Source of the DNA: Escherichia coli
GTDB lineage: Bacteria; Pseudomonadota; Gammaproteobacteria; Enterobacterales; Enterobacteriaceae
Assembly: GCF_041886205.1 (NCBI RefSeq)
Contig: NZ_CP169029.1
Direction: 5' to 3' (one strand)
Length of the DNA: 64,000 nucleotides
Position 1 is the stretch's first letter, and each line of letters opens with the position of its first letter. Positions 26,486 to 56,106 of this stretch are shown here, piece after piece. The notes under the pieces are model-generated. The model ran no database searches. It saw nothing but the letters and a program-made list of their open reading frames with translations, and was not told the origin of the DNA. The position numbers and the translations under genes are program-made.

Positions 26486-26989
26486 TCAATGCAGCTGGTG
26501 TGACACGACATTCAGAACATGTTGGTCGGTCTGCACAGGGCACATACCCGCAAGTTTCGCACTGCGCACTTCATCAAGAATGGTTTGCAGCAACAGACCA
26601 TCATGCTGCTGTTCTTTTTCCAGATCGCGCAGGAAATTGACGGTTGAATCATCATTCAGTTCTTTCGCTTCATCGGCTAACTGTGCCAACGTACTAGAAC
26701 GTTGCTCGTATTCTTCCATCGTTTTTTGGAACAGTTCTTCCAGAGAGTTCAGTTTTTCACCGGGAACATCAATGGCTTTAACGATGGGGGTAGCGCCGAC
26801 ACTCTTCATAAAGTTAAACATGCGCATCATTTGGGTCACATTACTCTGTGCCTGGGCGCGAAGGAAAGTGGCGGTGCCGTTCAGACTCTGTTCAGAACAC
26901 CAGTTACTCAGGTGAAGGTAGAGATTGGATGCGTAAAACTCGCGGTTCATTTGAGAGTTGAGTTTGAGAAGCATTCCAGCGGTTGCCAT
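26486..26989 (-). CDS. ftnB: ferritin-like protein FtnB
   Basis: 167-aa ORF paralogous to FtnA. Confidence 0.88.
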
Positions 26990-27179
26990 ACCTAATATCC
27001 TTATATCCAGAAGTGGAGAGGTGCAAGATAAATCAAAACACCATAATTACTGTTTGCAGAATAATTCCTTTCTGCCGGTCCGAAATGTGATCGTGGAGTC
27101 AATTCTGACGATGATCTGAAATAAGAATAACGTCTGAACGGGTATAAGAAAATGCTTAAATCATCAAGTTTATATATTT

Positions 27180-27207
27180 TTACATTTCATTGATGAAATC
27201 AATGTAA
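27180..27207. repeat. 28-bp dyad-symmetric element in the ftnB-araF intergenic region
   Basis: TTACATT-N14-AATGTAA with perfect 7-bp arms; about 190 bp upstream of the ftnB start on the minus strand. Confidence 0.4.
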
Positions 27208-27785
27208 CTGCAATGAATTTTAATGATAGTGCTTTTTGTATCTTGTTGATATTAATCAATGAATTTGAATTCATGATGAAGTGATGATTTTATAAAACGT
27301 TTTTTCATTTTTGCGAGATGGCTCTCATTATACGTGTTCTGTTAATTAATGAGCACAGTGATAATTAATGACGAAATGAATGACGTGCATTTTCCACATC
27401 TTTGAGTTGCGGTTATTACACCATTTCAAAAACTCAACGCCAGGTAATGCGGCCTATTGACTGGTTAAAAAGAAGACATCCCGCATGGGTACCAAAGACA
27501 ACAAGGATTTCCAGGCTAATCTTATGGATTAATCTGCTGTGCATTCGACAATTTGTCTGACAAATTGGCTTTCCCTTATGTCTTTTCCCGCTAAATTTAT
27601 GCACGTTCTCACTGTAATTCTGCGATGTGATATTGCTCTCCTATGGAGAATTAATTTCTCGCTAAAACTATGTCAACACAGTCACTTATCTTTTAGTTAA
27701 AAGGTAATGCTTTGTTTTCCGATTAATTTAACGAATGTCATTCGTTTTTGCCCTACACAAAACGACACTAAAGCTGGAGAGAACC

Positions 27786-28775
27786 ATGCACAAATTTACT
27801 AAAGCCCTGGCAGCCATTGGTCTGGCAGCCGTTATGTCACAATCCGCTATGGCGGAGAACCTGAAGCTCGGTTTTCTGGTGAAGCAACCGGAAGAGCCGT
27901 GGTTCCAGACCGAATGGAAGTTTGCCGATAAAGCCGGGAAGGATTTAGGGTTTGAGGTTATTAAGATTGCCGTGCCGGATGGCGAAAAAACATTGAACGC
28001 GATCGACAGCCTGGCTGCCAGTGGCGCAAAAGGTTTCGTTATTTGTACTCCGGACCCCAAACTCGGCTCTGCCATCGTCGCGAAAGCGCGTGGCTACGAT
28101 ATGAAAGTCATTGCCGTGGATGACCAGTTTGTTAACGCCAAAGGTAAGCCAATGGATACCGTTCCGCTGGTGATGATGGCGGCGACTAAAATTGGCGAAC
28201 GTCAGGGCCAGGAACTGTATAAAGAGATGCAGAAACGTGGCTGGGATGTCAAAGAAAGCGCGGTGATGGCGATTACCGCCAACGAACTGGATACCGCCCG
28301 CCGCCGTACTACGGGATCTATGGATGCGCTGAAAGCGGCCGGATTCCCGGAAAAACAAATTTATCAGGTACCTACCAAATCTAACGACATCCCGGGGGCA
28401 TTTGACGCTGCCAACTCAATGCTGGTTCAACATCCGGAAGTTAAACATTGGCTGATCGTCGGTATGAACGACAGCACCGTGCTGGGCGGCGTACGCGCGA
28501 CGGAAGGTCAGGGCTTTAAAGCGGCCGATATCATCGGCATTGGCATTAACGGTGTGGATGCGGTGAGCGAACTGTCTAAAGCACAGGCAACCGGCTTCTA
28601 CGGTTCCCTGCTGCCAAGCCCGGACGTACATGGCTATAAATCCAGCGAAATGCTTTACAACTGGGTAGCAAAAGACGTTGAACCGCCAAAATTTACCGAA
28701 GTTACCGACGTGGTACTGATCACGCGTGACAACTTTAAAGAAGAACTGGAGAAAAAAGGTTTAGGCGGTAAGTAA
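27786..28775 (+). CDS. araF: L-arabinose-binding periplasmic protein AraF
   Basis: ORF 27735-28775; start at 27786 (MHKFTKALAAIGLAAVMSQSAMA signal) giving 329 aa. Confidence 0.93.
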   Translation: MHKFTKALAAIGLAAVMSQSAMAENLKLGFLVKQPEEPWFQTEWKFADKAGKDLGFEVIKIAVPDGEKTLNAIDSLAASGAKGFVICTPDPKLGSAIVAKARGYDMKVIAVDDQFVNAKGKPMDTVPLVMMAATKIGERQGQELYKEMQKRGWDVKESAVMAITANELDTARRRTTGSMDALKAAGFPEKQIYQVPTKSNDIPGAFDAANSMLVQHPEVKHWLIVGMNDSTVLGGVRATEGQGFKAADIIGIGINGVDAVSELSKAQATGFYGSLLPSPDVHGYKSSEMLYNWVAKDVEPPKFTEVTDVVLITRDNFKEELEKKGLGGK

Positions 28776-33732: not shown

Positions 33733-34161
33733 TTAATCTCCCGTAAGTGGAACTAACAGCACATCGACCTCACTTGAGGCAATAACTCTTTTCGCCGAGC
33801 AGGATGCTCGCGAAAAGAAACTGTGATTGTGATTACCGCAAATCACCAAATCGAAATGATGCTTGTGACATACTTCCAGAATATGTTCGCTTAACTCACC
33901 GTAGGCAATAAACGTCTTGTCAACGGGATACCCCGCATCCTGAATTAACTTATCAAGAAAGCTTTGCGTTTCTTCCTGCATCACGCTGCGTAAATCTTCA
34001 AGCATCGGCGCAGCTAATTGATTGTACATTTCCGGGTCGGAAGCGAGAGTAATTAAACTGATGTGTCCCTTTACTGGCCTGGCGATAGATACCGCTTTTG
34101 CCAGCAGTTGCTGACTTTCCGGTGTAACCGCAACAGCGACAAGAATATTGCTATAGCTCAT
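33733..34161 (-). CDS. uspC: universal stress protein UspC
   Basis: 142-aa ORF (MSYSNILVAVAVTPESQQLL...), Usp fold; synteny upstream of flhDC. Confidence 0.88.
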   Translation of the reverse strand: MSYSNILVAVAVTPESQQLLAKAVSIARPVKGHISLITLASDPEMYNQLAAPMLEDLRSVMQEETQSFLDKLIQDAGYPVDKTFIAYGELSEHILEVCHKHHFDLVICGNHNHSFFSRASCSAKRVIASSEVDVLLVPLTGD

Positions 34162-34940
34162 AACCTGTTCCTTATTCTGTGAACTTCAGGTGACATTAAA
34201 GCTTTACTCCTAATGGAGAAACGACGCAATCCCAACTCGGTCAAACAGGTAAATATTAGTCTGATTATTAGTAAAGACAATTAATCAATCACTCCCGGTG
34301 ATCATATAATTTCAAATGTAATTATAAGAAAATAGTGTACTGATTCTCCGCATTAAACAAGTGGTTAATATATGTAAAACATTTCATTAATATTAAGTTG
34401 ATTGTTGCCTTTCTTTGTATTTAATTAGTTTGTTGTGCGGTAAGTGTCTGTTTAAAAATAGCTTATCTGGTATTGCATGAAAGTGATTATTTATAGCAGA
34501 TGATTATTTACGGTGAGTTATTTTGACTGTGCGCAACATCCCATTTCGATTATTCCTGTTTCATTTTTGCTTGCTAGCGTAGCGAAAAACTTTTTAACAG
34601 ATTGAAATACACCCAAAACAAAAGTATGACTTATACATTTATGTTAAGTAATTGAGTGTTTTGTGTGATCTGCATCACACATTATTGAAAATCGCAGCCC
34701 CCCTCCGTTGTATGTGCGTGTAGTGACGAGTACAGTTGCGTCGATTTAGGAAAAATCTTAGATAAGTGTAAAGAACCATTTCTATTTGTAAGGACATATT
34801 AAACCAAAAAGGTGGTTCTGCTTATTGCAGCTTATCGCAACTATTCTAATGCTAATTATTTTTTACCGGGGCTTCCCGGCGACATCACGGGGTGCGGTGA
34901 AACCGCATAAAAATAAAGTTGGTTATTCTGGGTGGGAATA
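34162..34940 (+). promoter_or_regulatory. flhDC upstream regulatory region and 5' leader (class 1 flagellar promoter)
   Basis: 779-bp AT-rich non-coding region before flhD; no IS element present; individual operator sites not resolved here. Confidence 0.6.
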
Positions 34941-35291
34941 ATGCATACCTCCGAGTTGCTGAAACACATTTATGACATCAACTTGTCATATTTACTACTT
35001 GCACAGCGTTTGATTGTTCAGGACAAAGCGTCCGCTATGTTTCGTCTCGGCATAAATGAAGAAATGGCGACAACGTTAGCGGCACTGACTCTTCCGCAAA
35101 TGGTTAAGCTGGCAGAAACCAATCAACTGGTTTGTCACTTCCGTTTTGACAGCCACCAGACGATTACTCAGTTGACGCAAGATTCCCGCGTTGACGATCT
35201 CCAGCAAATTCATACCGGCATCATGCTCTCAACACGCTTGCTGAATGATGTTAATCAGCCTGAAGAAGCGCTGCGCAAGAAAAGGGCCTGA
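34941..35291 (+). CDS. flhD: flagellar master regulator subunit FlhD
   Basis: Start at ATG 34941 ([24 protein letters not shown]...) giving 116 aa; the ORF-track start 9 nt upstream is a GTG extension. Confidence 0.93.
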
Positions 35292-50166: not shown

Positions 50167-50558
50167 TGAGAGCCTTATTAGCAATATTATTGTTTCCGCT
50201 GCTGGTGCAAGCCGCCGGGGAGGGGATGTGGCAGGCGAGTAGTGTGGGCGTTACGCTGAATCACCGTGGTGAGTCGATGTCGTCAGCGCCTCTTTCTACT
50301 CGACAACCTGCTTCAGGATTGATGACGCTGGTGGCGTGGCGTTATCAGCTTATCGGTCCGACACCTGCAGGATTGCGGGTTCGCTTGTGTTCGCAATCTC
50401 GTTGTGTCGAATTAGATGGGCAGAGCGGAACCACCGTGGCCTTTTCCGGTATAGCGGCAGCAGAACCGTTGCGCTTTATCTGGGAAGTGCCTGGCGGTGG
50501 GCGGTTAATTCCGCCGCTGAAAGTACAACGTAATGAAGTGATTGTGAATTATCGCTGA
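50166..50558 (+). CDS. flhE: flagellar protein FlhE
   Basis: 130-aa ORF with signal peptide; ATG overlaps the flhA stop. Confidence 0.9.
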   Translation: MRALLAILLFPLLVQAAGEGMWQASSVGVTLNHRGESMSSAPLSTRQPASGLMTLVAWRYQLIGPTPAGLRVRLCSQSRCVELDGQSGTTVAFSGIAAAEPLRFIWEVPGGGRLIPPLKVQRNEVIVNYR

Positions 50559-50678
50559 AGGACAAAAAAAATTACGCGCTCGCGAGTATGTTTAATAACT
50601 CAGTGAAAAAGGCTGGATGTTTTGTTGCAATCATTTATCAGGAATAGCTTGCAACAAAACATGCCAAAAATATGTGAA

Positions 50679-51188
50679 TTATCCTCTTGTCAAAGGGCTT
50701 GGATAAAAATCTTCAGAGTTACGGTATAGCTGCAACTGGCGAGTTCGCGTATTGGTCTGTATGATCATACATGAGAGCCATTCTGATTCAGAATAAGGGT
50801 CACTTAAATCCTGAACATCCTCATTTGAAAGGATTAATTCACATTCTTTGTCCCTAAAATCCAGCCAGGCTCGCTGTGATTTTTTAAGCAAGTTAAGTTG
50901 TTCAGTATCAGGTTTTTTGGCACCTGTGCGTGGCACTTGTTCTATATAACGATAAGCTTCACCATAAGCTTTATTTAATTGCGCATCGACGAGATTGTAT
51001 TCTTGTCGCAGACATGATTTGATCACGTTAATGTCAGTATCATCATCTGAATTTTTTTGCCAACAATCTTTGATGGCTGAAATGTCATGATCATTTACTA
51101 TAAGCGTATCTTCTGCGTAAACCTGGCAAGAGATAATGCCTAATGTTAATACAAGAAATTTAAACACTGCGGTATTCCTTAAATTCAA
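50679..51188 (-). CDS. yecT: secreted protein of unknown function (probable YecT)
   Basis: 169-aa ORF with N-terminal signal peptide (MNLRNTAVFKFLVLTLGIISCQVYA); visibly lower GC than neighbours; symbol assigned from position between flhE and argS only. Confidence 0.6.
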   Translation of the reverse strand: MNLRNTAVFKFLVLTLGIISCQVYAEDTLIVNDHDISAIKDCWQKNSDDDTDINVIKSCLRQEYNLVDAQLNKAYGEAYRYIEQVPRTGAKKPDTEQLNLLKKSQRAWLDFRDKECELILSNEDVQDLSDPYSESEWLSCMIIQTNTRTRQLQLYRNSEDFYPSPLTRG

Positions 51189-51288
51189 CCGTTATCGTTT
51201 CCCTGGGGCCGGATATTACGCTTCTGGCCTCTTATCCAACAGTGAGAAAACAATGGCATGTCCATTTTCAGAATACATTTAGATTGCA

Positions 51289-51324
51289 ATAAAAAAGCCT
51301 GATCAGGTAACCCTGATCAGGCTT
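51289..51324 (-). terminator. rho-independent terminator downstream of argS
   Basis: AAGCCTGATCAGG-TAAC-CCTGATCAGGCTT hairpin with a T tract on the minus strand. Confidence 0.65.
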
Positions 51325-51343
51325 TACTCTCACGAAAAATCGA

Positions 51344-53863: not shown

Positions 53864-54619
<756 letters not shown>

Positions 54620-55005
54620 TTTTTACCGTTGCATCATGTCGCCCAATATGATGCTTGCTCGTACCAGGCCCCTGCAATTTCAACAGGGGCCTTTTTTTAT
54701 TTCTGAATAGTATAAAAAACGAACGATTGCCGTGATCTGTTGAGCGGGTGACAGTGCGCATAGCGTTGTGCTAAAAATATTTTATATATTCACATTAATT
54801 ATGGGATTTAAATTGCTAAAACTGATAAATATATATTCTAAATAGCAACTGGGTTATTCCTTAGAAATTAAGGATTACATTGTAATAAATCATATTCTTT
54901 TTCGATTATTTCAGGCAGTGTTGTGCCGAATTATGCAAGCGGTTAATTCGTTGTATATTTAATTATACAATGATTTCGGTGTTCTGGAATTAAATATAGG
55001 AATCT

Positions 55006-56106
55006 ATGCGAGGGAAAAAACGCATTGGGTTATTGTTTTTGCTGATAGCGGTTGTGGTTGGTGGCGGCGGGTTATTGCTGGCGCAAAAAGCCTTACATAA
55101 AACGTCGGATACAGCATTTTGCCTTTCCTGCCACTCGATGAGTAAACCTTTTGAGGAATATCAGGGAACTGTCCACTTTTCGAACCAGAAAGGGATACGT
55201 GCGGAATGTGCCGATTGCCATATTCCAAAGTCAGGGATGGATTATTTATTTGCTAAATTAAAAGCATCTAAAGATATTTATCATGAATTTGTTAGCGGCA
55301 AAATAGACAGTGATGATAAGTTCGAAGCTCATCGCCAGGAAATGGCCGAAACAGTATGGAAAGAATTAAAAGCCACTGACTCTGCAACGTGTCGTAGTTG
55401 CCATTCTTTTGATGCCATGGATATTGCCTCGCAAAGTGAATCTGCGCAGAAAATGCATAACAAAGCGCAAAAGGACGGCGAAACCTGTATCGATTGTCAT
55501 AAAGGCATTGCTCATTTTCCGCCAGAAATAAAAATGGATGACAACGCGGCGCATGAGCTGGAAAGTCAGACCGCTACTTCAGTGACTAATGGCGCACATA
55601 TTTATCCTTTCAAAACTTCTCGCATAGGCGAGCTGGCTACCGTGAATCCTGGTACCGATCTCACCGTCGTTGATGCCAGTGGCAAACAGCCGATCGTTCT
55701 GTTGCAGGGTTATCAAATGCAGGGCAGTGAAAACACGCTCTACCTGGCGGCAGGTCAACGGCTGGCGCTAGCCACATTAAGTGAAGAAGGTATCAAGGCG
55801 CTCACGGTAAACGGGGAATGGCAGGCTGACGAATACGGCAATCAATGGCGTCAGGCGTCTTTACAGGGTGCGCTTACCGATCCCGCATTAGCGGACCGTA
55901 AACCGCTATGGCAATACGCTGAAAAACTTTACGATACCTATTGCGCTGGTTGTCATGCCCCTATTGCCGCCGACCATTACACCGTCAATGCGTGGCCGTC
56001 CATTGCCAAAGGAATGGGGGCACGAACCAGCATGAGCGAAAACGAACTGGACATTTTAACGCGGTATTTCCAGTACAACGCCAAAGATATTACCGAGAAA
56101 CAGTGA
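55006..56106 (+). CDS. torY: NapC/NirT-family pentahaem c-type cytochrome TorY
   Basis: 366-aa ORF with N-terminal TM anchor and multiple CxxCH haem motifs. Confidence 0.9.

Follow-up and report, generated by a model that had tools for sequence, protein, structure and literature searches.

In the 64,000-nucleotide stretch of Escherichia coli DNA analysed here and referred to as the window (contig NZ_CP169029.1 of RefSeq assembly GCF_041886205.1), the gene yecT lies between the flagellar gene flhE and argS. We propose, with a probability of about 0.45, that its product acts in the periplasm as an orphan immunity protein of the DUF1311 type and that its target is a peptidoglycan-cleaving, lysozyme-like effector of a type VI secretion system (T6SS). 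The proposal draws primarily on the closest homologues of yecT, which are located within low-GC effector/immunity islands of T6SS loci carrying muramidase or amidase effectors, and it gains further support from the activation of yecT through RcsB, the regulator of an envelope-stress pathway (PMC3950696). The gene is a catalogued y-gene of E. coli K-12, b1877, for which the family, the regulation and the foreign composition had been recorded before; new here are the purifying selection acting on it, its absence from about one third of complete genomes, the position of its relatives in T6SS loci and the presence of a relative in Helicobacter.

Gene identity and start codon

An earlier note on the window, made from the sequence alone, had singled out an open reading frame (ORF) at 50679-51188 on the minus strand, listed as 169 amino acids from a TTG codon, and had named it as probable yecT. 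RefSeq annotation of strain 6EVA, which is 100% identical across the locus, bears out this name. The ORF of 169 codons exists as described, but the protein probably starts at the GTG at 51167, yielding 162 amino acids, and not at the TTG at 51188. The GTG start is that of the RefSeq version (489 nt, 162 amino acids, product name "lysozyme inhibitor LprI family protein") and it is preferred because of the Shine-Dalgarno spacing, with AAGGA at 51180-51176 lying 8 nt 5' of the GTG, the N-termini of the homologues, all of whose ATG starts align with this codon, and the published length of 162 amino acids (PMC3950696). The coding region is thus divided as follows.

50679-51167, minus strand: yecT coding sequence, 162 amino acids with GTG start and TAA stop, encoding a predicted periplasmic protein of the LprI/DUF1311 family
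51114-51167, minus strand: signal-peptide codons, residues 1-18 (MFKFLVLTLGIISCQVYA), from reading of the sequence, with cleavage predicted after VYA
51168-51188, minus strand: in-frame extension of seven codons up to the TTG, probably 5' untranslated region carrying the AAGGA

The gene order in the window, uvrY, flhDC, mot, che, flhBAE, yecT, argS, yecM, cutC and torYZ, is standard for the region. As the earlier note had stated, yecT is convergent with the flhBAE operon, which is on the plus strand, and it is co-directional with, and downstream of, argS.

Export signal, family and fold

The signal peptide that had been noticed earlier withstands inspection: the N-terminal MFKFLVLTLGIISCQVYA, followed by EDT, carries V at position -3 and A at position -1 and is typical of the Sec pathway, and in an AlphaFold2 (AF2) model residues 3-17 form an N-terminal helix. 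On this basis YecT is predicted to be exported to the periplasm. A lipobox-like I-I-S-C14 occurs in E. coli YecT and in an orthologue from a metagenomic contig of an Escherichia relative (L015), and it is lacking in the T6SS-linked and Helicobacter homologues, whose cleavage sites read A-Y-A.

YecT matches Pfam family PF07007, LprI (formerly DUF1311), with 64.6 bits against a cut-off of 22 and over positions 1-106 of the 106 in the profile. A confident match to a well-characterised family of known function had been named earlier as a refuting outcome; the match is indeed confident, but the function of the family is not established. Among 51 aligned family members C35 and W101 are invariant, and at least 90% of the members share C52, C109, C133, Q98 and R105; the family motif Q-R-A-W-x-x-F-R-D-x-E-C is present in YecT. 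The AF2 model (predicted local distance difference test score 90.2) is a helical bundle close to PDB 3GI7, the Pseudomonas putida protein PP0307 that serves as the structural representative of PF07007, and mature YecT is predicted to consist of about 144 amino acids folded into a four- or five-helix bundle with two disulfides. Comparison of the 51-sequence profile with PDB retrieved 3GI7 and 6AR7, both of unknown function, and a PDB search with the single YecT sequence yielded only noise.

Within the LprI/DUF1311 proteins at large, YecT belongs to a narrow and sharply delimited subfamily. An exhaustive HMMER search of 1.84 billion representatives produced a handful of 50%-identity clusters at E<1e-10 and, past these close clusters, nothing beyond the DUF1311 family in general, at about 30% identity. 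Invariant in the subfamily are DDHDIS, close to the N-terminus of the mature protein, the motif PRT, an elongated LSNED..L.DP loop between helices 3 and 4, and a C-terminal Y-x-S-P-x-x-R-G tail, which reads YPSPLTRG in YecT and which has no secondary structure and is of lower confidence in the AF2 model. Of these, DDHDIS, the longer loop and the tail are additions relative to the family as a whole.

Gene contexts of the closest relatives

Homologues with 50-65% identity to YecT were found in T6SS loci and in Helicobacter, and members with 38-40% identity in low-GC contigs, flanked by a carbonic anhydrase gene on one side and leuD on the other. The T6SS-linked homologue is directly upstream of a PAAR gene in five contigs, namely L004, L008, L013 (from Mangrovibacter phragmitis), L016 and L019. 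Four of these (L004, L008, L013 and L019) extend far enough to show the order PAAR, a 386-amino-acid protein and TssM, followed in L004 and L013 by TssA. A further contig, L018, ends at the homologue, and the 143-amino-acid protein encoded upstream resembles, by eye and unaligned, the secreted proteins of 137 and 139 amino acids in L004.

The region upstream of the homologue is occupied by variable effector/immunity modules. They comprise Pesticin-type lysozyme effectors, each with a small LprI gene after it, an effector combining M23 and phage-lysozyme domains, a C-terminal effector fragment whose motifs are GH19-like by eye only, and a CHAP amidase gene ahead of genes for four predicted secreted proteins. 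The composition of these loci is uneven: core genes have 50-62% GC and full-length effector ORFs 39-51%, the small secreted or immunity genes and C-terminal effector fragments have 32-43%, and the YecT homologue has 37-39%. Because its GC content matches that of the cargo genes, the homologue was grouped with the cargo island, as its distal border. In the orphan-immunity array model the oldest retained immunity gene occupies such a distal border (PMC9796082), and a distal, conserved orphan gene fits this model.

The 386-amino-acid protein (L004 6822-7982, L008 6383-7543, L013 8749-9909, L019 2671-3831) is always encoded between PAAR and TssM. It carries two N-terminal transmembrane helices, is conserved in the Mangrovibacter-type T6SS and gave no Pfam or NCBIfam match; it constitutes an uncharacterised T6SS-associated component.

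In Helicobacter (contigs L009 and L020) the homologue is 62-65% identical to YecT and shows the host's own GC content. The host is of the enterohepatic type, its FlgE being 72% identical to that of Helicobacter sp. 11S03491-1, and the occurrence of a YecT homologue there indicates transfer between phyla. The gene is preceded by an S15 peptidase gene and followed, after about 10 nt, by a gene for a secreted protein of 257-260 amino acids (L009 6586-7368, L020 4337-5110) for which no family match was found, and flgD and flgE are near. The secreted protein may be an operon partner of the Helicobacter YecT homologue.

In a neighbour-joining tree, without support values, the Escherichia clade linked to flhE falls among the T6SS-linked sequences. 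In hhalign comparisons the subfamily profile matched the LprI gene that overlaps the stop codon of a Pesticin effector with a probability of 96.8%, and the enterohaemorrhagic E. coli (EHEC) protein Etsi4 with a probability of 85%. A DNA pattern specific for the T6SS-type homologues found no match in metagenomes.

Likeness to known immunity proteins

DUF1311/LprI proteins have been implicated in T6SS immunity, either as acting or as predicted immunity proteins (PMC12135965; PMC9796082; PMC12981562), and in the case of Etsi4 from EHEC rescue of Etse4 toxicity was demonstrated experimentally (PMC12981562). Like YecT they are small, are targeted to the periplasm and have the DUF1311 fold; they occur in association with cell-wall T6SS effectors, and orphan copies are kept without the toxin. 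YecT differs from them in being only 21-25% identical and, in E. coli, in being encoded outside any T6SS locus. A closer relationship, with YecT as a near paralogue of Etsi4, was considered and rejected, the identity being only 21%. The Vibrio cholerae protein TsiV3 (PDB 4NSR), which confers immunity to the VgrG3 muramidase, shows no sequence homology by the YecT-family profile, and its resemblance to YecT may be that of generic helical bundles.

Distribution and selection within Escherichia

In Escherichia whittamii and Escherichia sp. E1V33, yecT is present at the same site with 96-97% amino-acid identity. Synonymous divergence (dS) for these comparisons is 0.17-0.24 for yecT against 0.23-0.41 for flhE, argS and flhA, and since the site is shared and the dS values are of the same order as those of the flanks, the insertion of yecT predates these species splits. 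At this species-level divergence the ratio of nonsynonymous to synonymous changes (dN/dS) is 0.064-0.067 for yecT and 0.13-0.15 for flhE. The low ratio indicates that yecT has been kept by selection, and this leaves very little room for the weakest of the alternatives, that the gene is no more than the decaying relic of an old insertion, without function: silencing by H-NS, the deletion, frameshifting or IS1 disruption of the gene in many lineages and a phenotype limited to a single unvalidated screen match would agree with decay, but about 65% of complete genomes have an intact frame and the subfamily motifs are invariant over homologues of 40-65% identity, so that we regard it as highly improbable.

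A check on presence and absence, as suggested in the earlier note, showed a match to the yecT locus in 3640 of 5426 complete E. coli genomes. A clean empty site was found in 1098 of the 5426, in the form of a 52-bp spacer between flhE and argS that has a terminator hairpin of its own. Strains with the empty site include LF82, 536, O25:H4, ST131, ST1193, an avian pathogenic E. coli (APEC) O2:K1 strain, the Nissle derivative SYNB1934, Seattle 1946 and the JCM type-strain line; LF82, 536, O25:H4, APEC O2:K1, SYNB1934, Seattle 1946 and the JCM line belong to phylogroup B2. The presence of yecT in other Escherichia species favours secondary loss over an ancestral empty state. Other states comprise IS1 insertions and frameshifted versions of 110 amino acids (P0016, 131 members), which are common in Shigella-like genomes. 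A 69-bp pseudogene remnant, seen in strain HH45, was considered as the common state of genomes lacking yecT and was discarded, since it occurs in only two genomes and the clean 52-bp spacer is the common state.

The hairpin of the empty site, GCCGATGTC...GACATCGGC (596-655 of L021, from ST1193), differs from the argS terminator of strains carrying yecT, and the two have the lead-in ATAAAAAAGCC in common.

A broader DNA pattern for the subfamily retrieved 44 metagenome contigs, every one with the E. coli-type order flhE-yecT-argS. In the metagenomic contig L015 (1312 bp) the gene is at the same position, with FlhE 85% and YecT 57-59% identical to the E. coli proteins, and by these values yecT would have diverged much faster than its flank over longer timescales or the allele would have been replaced.

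Composition and foreign origin

The earlier note had described the gene as AT-rich in comparison with its neighbours and had suggested an older horizontal acquisition. The calculated values agree with the description: yecT has a GC content of 0.376, which is out of line with the mean of 0.505 for the window, and a GC content at third codon positions (GC3) of 0.307, against 0.608 for flhB, 0.610 for flhA, 0.504 for flhE, 0.569 for argS, 0.513 for yecM and 0.478 for cutC. Only 2.4% of 489-nt segments across the 64 kb are as GC-poor, and the low GC content extends into the spacers.

50559-51343, no strand: AT-rich island including both intergenic spacers, 785 bp, GC 0.381

Subfamily genes have 36-40% GC in every host found, including hosts with core genes of 50-60% GC, and a pattern-based scan of about 100,000 species-representative genomes yielded yecT-type genes at only three loci. 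Moderate derepression of yecT in an hns stpA mutant has been reported (PMC3950696), and the gene therefore behaves as one that is xenogeneically silenced. Composition and patchy distribution and, from the literature, H-NS repression are thus those of a horizontally acquired, xenogeneically silenced gene. Together with the same-site orthologues in Escherichia and their dS values, they support the suggested older acquisition.

Other AT-rich stretches in the window, with GC content down to 0.31, occur at about 33900-35100, 26800-27850 and 54470-55380. By conversion of coordinates to an annotated record they correspond to the regulatory region upstream of flhD (the flhD-uspC spacer), to the araF-ftnB spacer, and to the cutC-torY spacer with the start of torY, respectively, and they look like ordinary AT-rich intergenic regions.

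A possible role in T6SS immunity

On the proposed reading, yecT was acquired horizontally by an ancestor of Escherichia and has since remained AT-rich and largely silent, and its cognate toxin gene would no longer lie beside it. The protein, located in the periplasm, would bind and neutralise a lysozyme-like effector injected by competing Enterobacterales, and DDHDIS, the LSNED..L.DP loop and the flexible C-terminal tail would provide the inhibitory interface. The gene, silenced by H-NS and inducible via BglJ-RcsB, would have been kept by selection in most E. coli lineages and lost in strains of the extraintestinal pathogenic E. coli (ExPEC) type. Retention, loss and purifying selection in combination are a population pattern typical of accessory defence cargo. 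A more specific version holds that YecT shields most E. coli lineages, namely those of K-12, O157 and the other strains carrying yecT, from a lysozyme-like T6SS effector family of other gut Enterobacterales, that the ExPEC-type strains LF82, 536, ST131 and the Nissle derivative have lost this protection along with yecT, and that BglJ-RcsB switches the gene on under envelope attack; this we consider possible and rather doubtful.

Several observations weigh against an immunity function. E. coli yecT adjoins no effector gene, its neighbours being flhE and argS, and no YecT-subfamily gene in the loci found comes immediately after an effector. The homologue remains constant while the effectors upstream change, which would also fit a conserved accessory factor transcribed with PAAR. 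Because the T6SS loci share one type of T6SS, with PAAR 90% identical between L004 and L016, they represent approximately one independent association, and there are subfamily members in contexts other than T6SS, namely in Helicobacter and between carbonic anhydrase and leuD. The lack of support values applies to the whole of the tree on which the nesting of the Escherichia clade is read. Finally, Salmonella ScwA, the one enterobacterial periplasmic protein with an LprI domain to have been studied closely, showed no part in lysozyme resistance and modulated MltD (PMC7933661).

Alternative functions

ScwA is also the model for the alternative that survives best, namely that YecT modulates the cell's own peptidoglycan-cleaving enzymes and has no part in defence. 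ScwA (SL1344_0490) is periplasmic, requires DsbA and two disulfides, raises the level of MltD and showed no influence on sensitivity or resistance to lysozyme (PMC7933661). It and YecT are both horizontally acquired periplasmic LprI-domain proteins, and YecT shares the four cysteines, with two disulfides predicted, and the fold. A link of the family to the cell wall is also suggested by the Pseudomonas aeruginosa DUF1311 protein labelled "YecT" (PA3021), which was depleted in transposon sequencing (Tn-seq) under cefepime (PMC7038268), and control by RcsB fits an envelope function. However, ScwA is a protein of 275 amino acids with a long N-terminal region, its LprI domain is confined to the C-terminal part and belongs to a different subfamily, its demonstrated effect concerns MltD levels and virulence, and it is not closely related to YecT. 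Silence under laboratory conditions and dispensability, with about one third of E. coli lacking the gene, would be odd for a housekeeping regulator, and the closest relatives lie in T6SS cargo islands and not near genes of peptidoglycan metabolism. We therefore consider a role as endogenous modulator unlikely.

The RefSeq product name points to another function, the inhibition of animal host lysozyme. The confident Pfam match, the predicted periplasmic location and the exposure of gut-dwelling E. coli to lysozyme would all be compatible with it, and LprI of Mycobacterium tuberculosis has been reported to inhibit lysozyme (Sethi 2016, as cited in PMC7933661 and PMC12135965). That protein is a lipoprotein which has its N-terminal LprI/DUF1311 domain in common with YecT, but it carries in addition a C-terminal MliC domain, which Cestero et al. 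describe as sufficient to make cells lysozyme-resistant; for the LprI domain itself they report no experimental support for a lysozyme-inhibitor role (PMC7933661). YecT gave no match to the MliC/PliC domain PF09864 even at E<=1, and ScwA, with the LprI domain only, gave no protection. Given this, "lysozyme inhibitor" is best taken as a family label and not as a function, and the database name has probably been over-transferred from the two-domain protein. Moreover, E. coli already possesses the dedicated lysozyme inhibitors Ivy and PliG (PMC7933661), with ivy annotated in the O157 record, yecT is silenced by H-NS, and prominent host-adapted ExPEC strains lack it. Taken together, a true inhibitor of host lysozyme seems distinctly improbable.

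Proximity to the flagellar operon suggests a third possibility, that YecT is a flagellum-related envelope factor acting either as a UmoC-like up-regulator of flhDC via Rcs or as an inhibitor of the FlgJ muramidase. YecT matches the NCBIfam model "UmoC family flagellar biogenesis regulator" (NF041434, from Proteus mirabilis UmoC) at E=3.1e-9, and there is a thematic link between the two proteins through flagella and Rcs; yecT adjoins flhE both in Escherichia and in the more distant L015, the Helicobacter homologue is near flgD and flgE, and RcsB, to which the yecT promoter responds, controls flhDC as well. The similarity to UmoC is nevertheless weak: it amounts to 36.9 bits where the cut-off is 120, and it is equalled or exceeded among unrelated DUF1311 proteins, whose scores fall in the range of 22-47 bits; in Morganella umoC itself lies outside the flagellar locus. 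Flagellar genes are scattered round the genome in Helicobacter, and the adjacency to flgD and flgE therefore carries little weight. In E. coli, yecT is convergent with and separated from flhBAE, a search for the sigma-28 motif TAAAGTTT-N11-GCCGATAA with up to three mismatches found none near yecT and five elsewhere in the window, and the flagellated strains LF82, 536 and ST131 lack yecT entirely. The literature searched contains no paper linking yecT to FlhDC or FliA. The proximity to the flagellar operon thus appears incidental, and we consider a flagellar role very unlikely.

Regulation and flanking elements

The BglJ-RcsB heteromer acts as an activator at the yecT promoter (Salscheider et al., PMC3950696). 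Expression rose 2.1-fold in EHEC O26 grown with competing meat microbiota (PMC5543532), and apart from a single unvalidated match in a Keio screen no phenotype is known for yecT. The elements flanking the gene are as follows.

51189-51293, minus strand: yecT promoter and regulatory region, with published BglJ-RcsB activation and moderate H-NS/StpA repression
51294-51325, minus strand: intrinsic terminator of argS, a 14-bp perfect hairpin with a T-run, separating argS from yecT
51258-51302, plus strand: small ORF of 14 codons (MSIFRIHLDCNKKA), yecV in K-12 and "hypothetical protein" in the strain of the RefSeq record
50559-50678, no strand: flhE-yecT intergenic spacer, 120 bp, GC 0.35

The core of the published BglJ-RcsB motif (wwTTCykA) is matched by TATTCTGA at 51268-51275, and this is the sole match upstream of yecT. 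Since the motif occurs in the window at chance frequency, with 34 matches found and 31.7 expected, 51268-51275 is a mere candidate site. A sigma-70 scan detected no convincing promoter 5' of yecT; its single match was intragenic, and there were fewer matches than in shuffled sequence. The yecV ORF at 51258-51302 is antisense in the yecT upstream region and overlaps both the argS terminator and the BglJ-RcsB core match.

On the other side of the gene, the flhE-yecT spacer contains a perfect 14-bp inverted repeat, ATGTTTTGTTGCAA at 50617-50630 and TTGCAACAAAACAT at 50649-50662, with an 18-nt loop, and a T-run follows it on the minus strand only. By this arrangement the repeat at 50617-50662 may be the yecT terminator; it was not called in a terminator scan limited to loops of 8 nt. 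An 18-nt inverted repeat of 83% complementarity (50615-50632 and 51282-51299) flanks the whole yecT gene. The 120-bp spacer is also bracketed by an exact 11-bp direct repeat, TGTGAATTATC, with copies at 50543-50553 in the last codons of flhE and at 50673-50683, spanning the stop codon of yecT; the chance expectation for such repeats in 821 bp is about 0.1, and the repeat could be a relic of insertion or duplication, or due to chance.

IS1 was found in or beside yecT in strain CX12 and in E. coli 042, and recurrent IS-mediated deletions with one end at yecT ([yecT-flhD]) are known from K-12 derivatives. The AT-rich yecT seems to be a frequent endpoint of rearrangements that remove the motility region.

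Implications

The useful results of the analysis are the corrected start codon, the caution concerning the product name, the pattern of presence and absence among E. coli genomes, and a testable hypothesis of T6SS immunity. The occurrence of its relatives as T6SS cargo gives the orphan yecT a concrete function that can be tested cheaply, that of immunity to a peptidoglycan-hydrolase effector. If this were confirmed, the invariant, flexible Y-x-S-P-x-x-R-G tail would add a novel inhibitory element to the DUF1311 fold, susceptibility to a class of interbacterial toxins would vary among E. coli lineages, and a silent y-gene beside the flagellar operon would be a lineage-specific determinant of survival in the interbacterial warfare of the gut.

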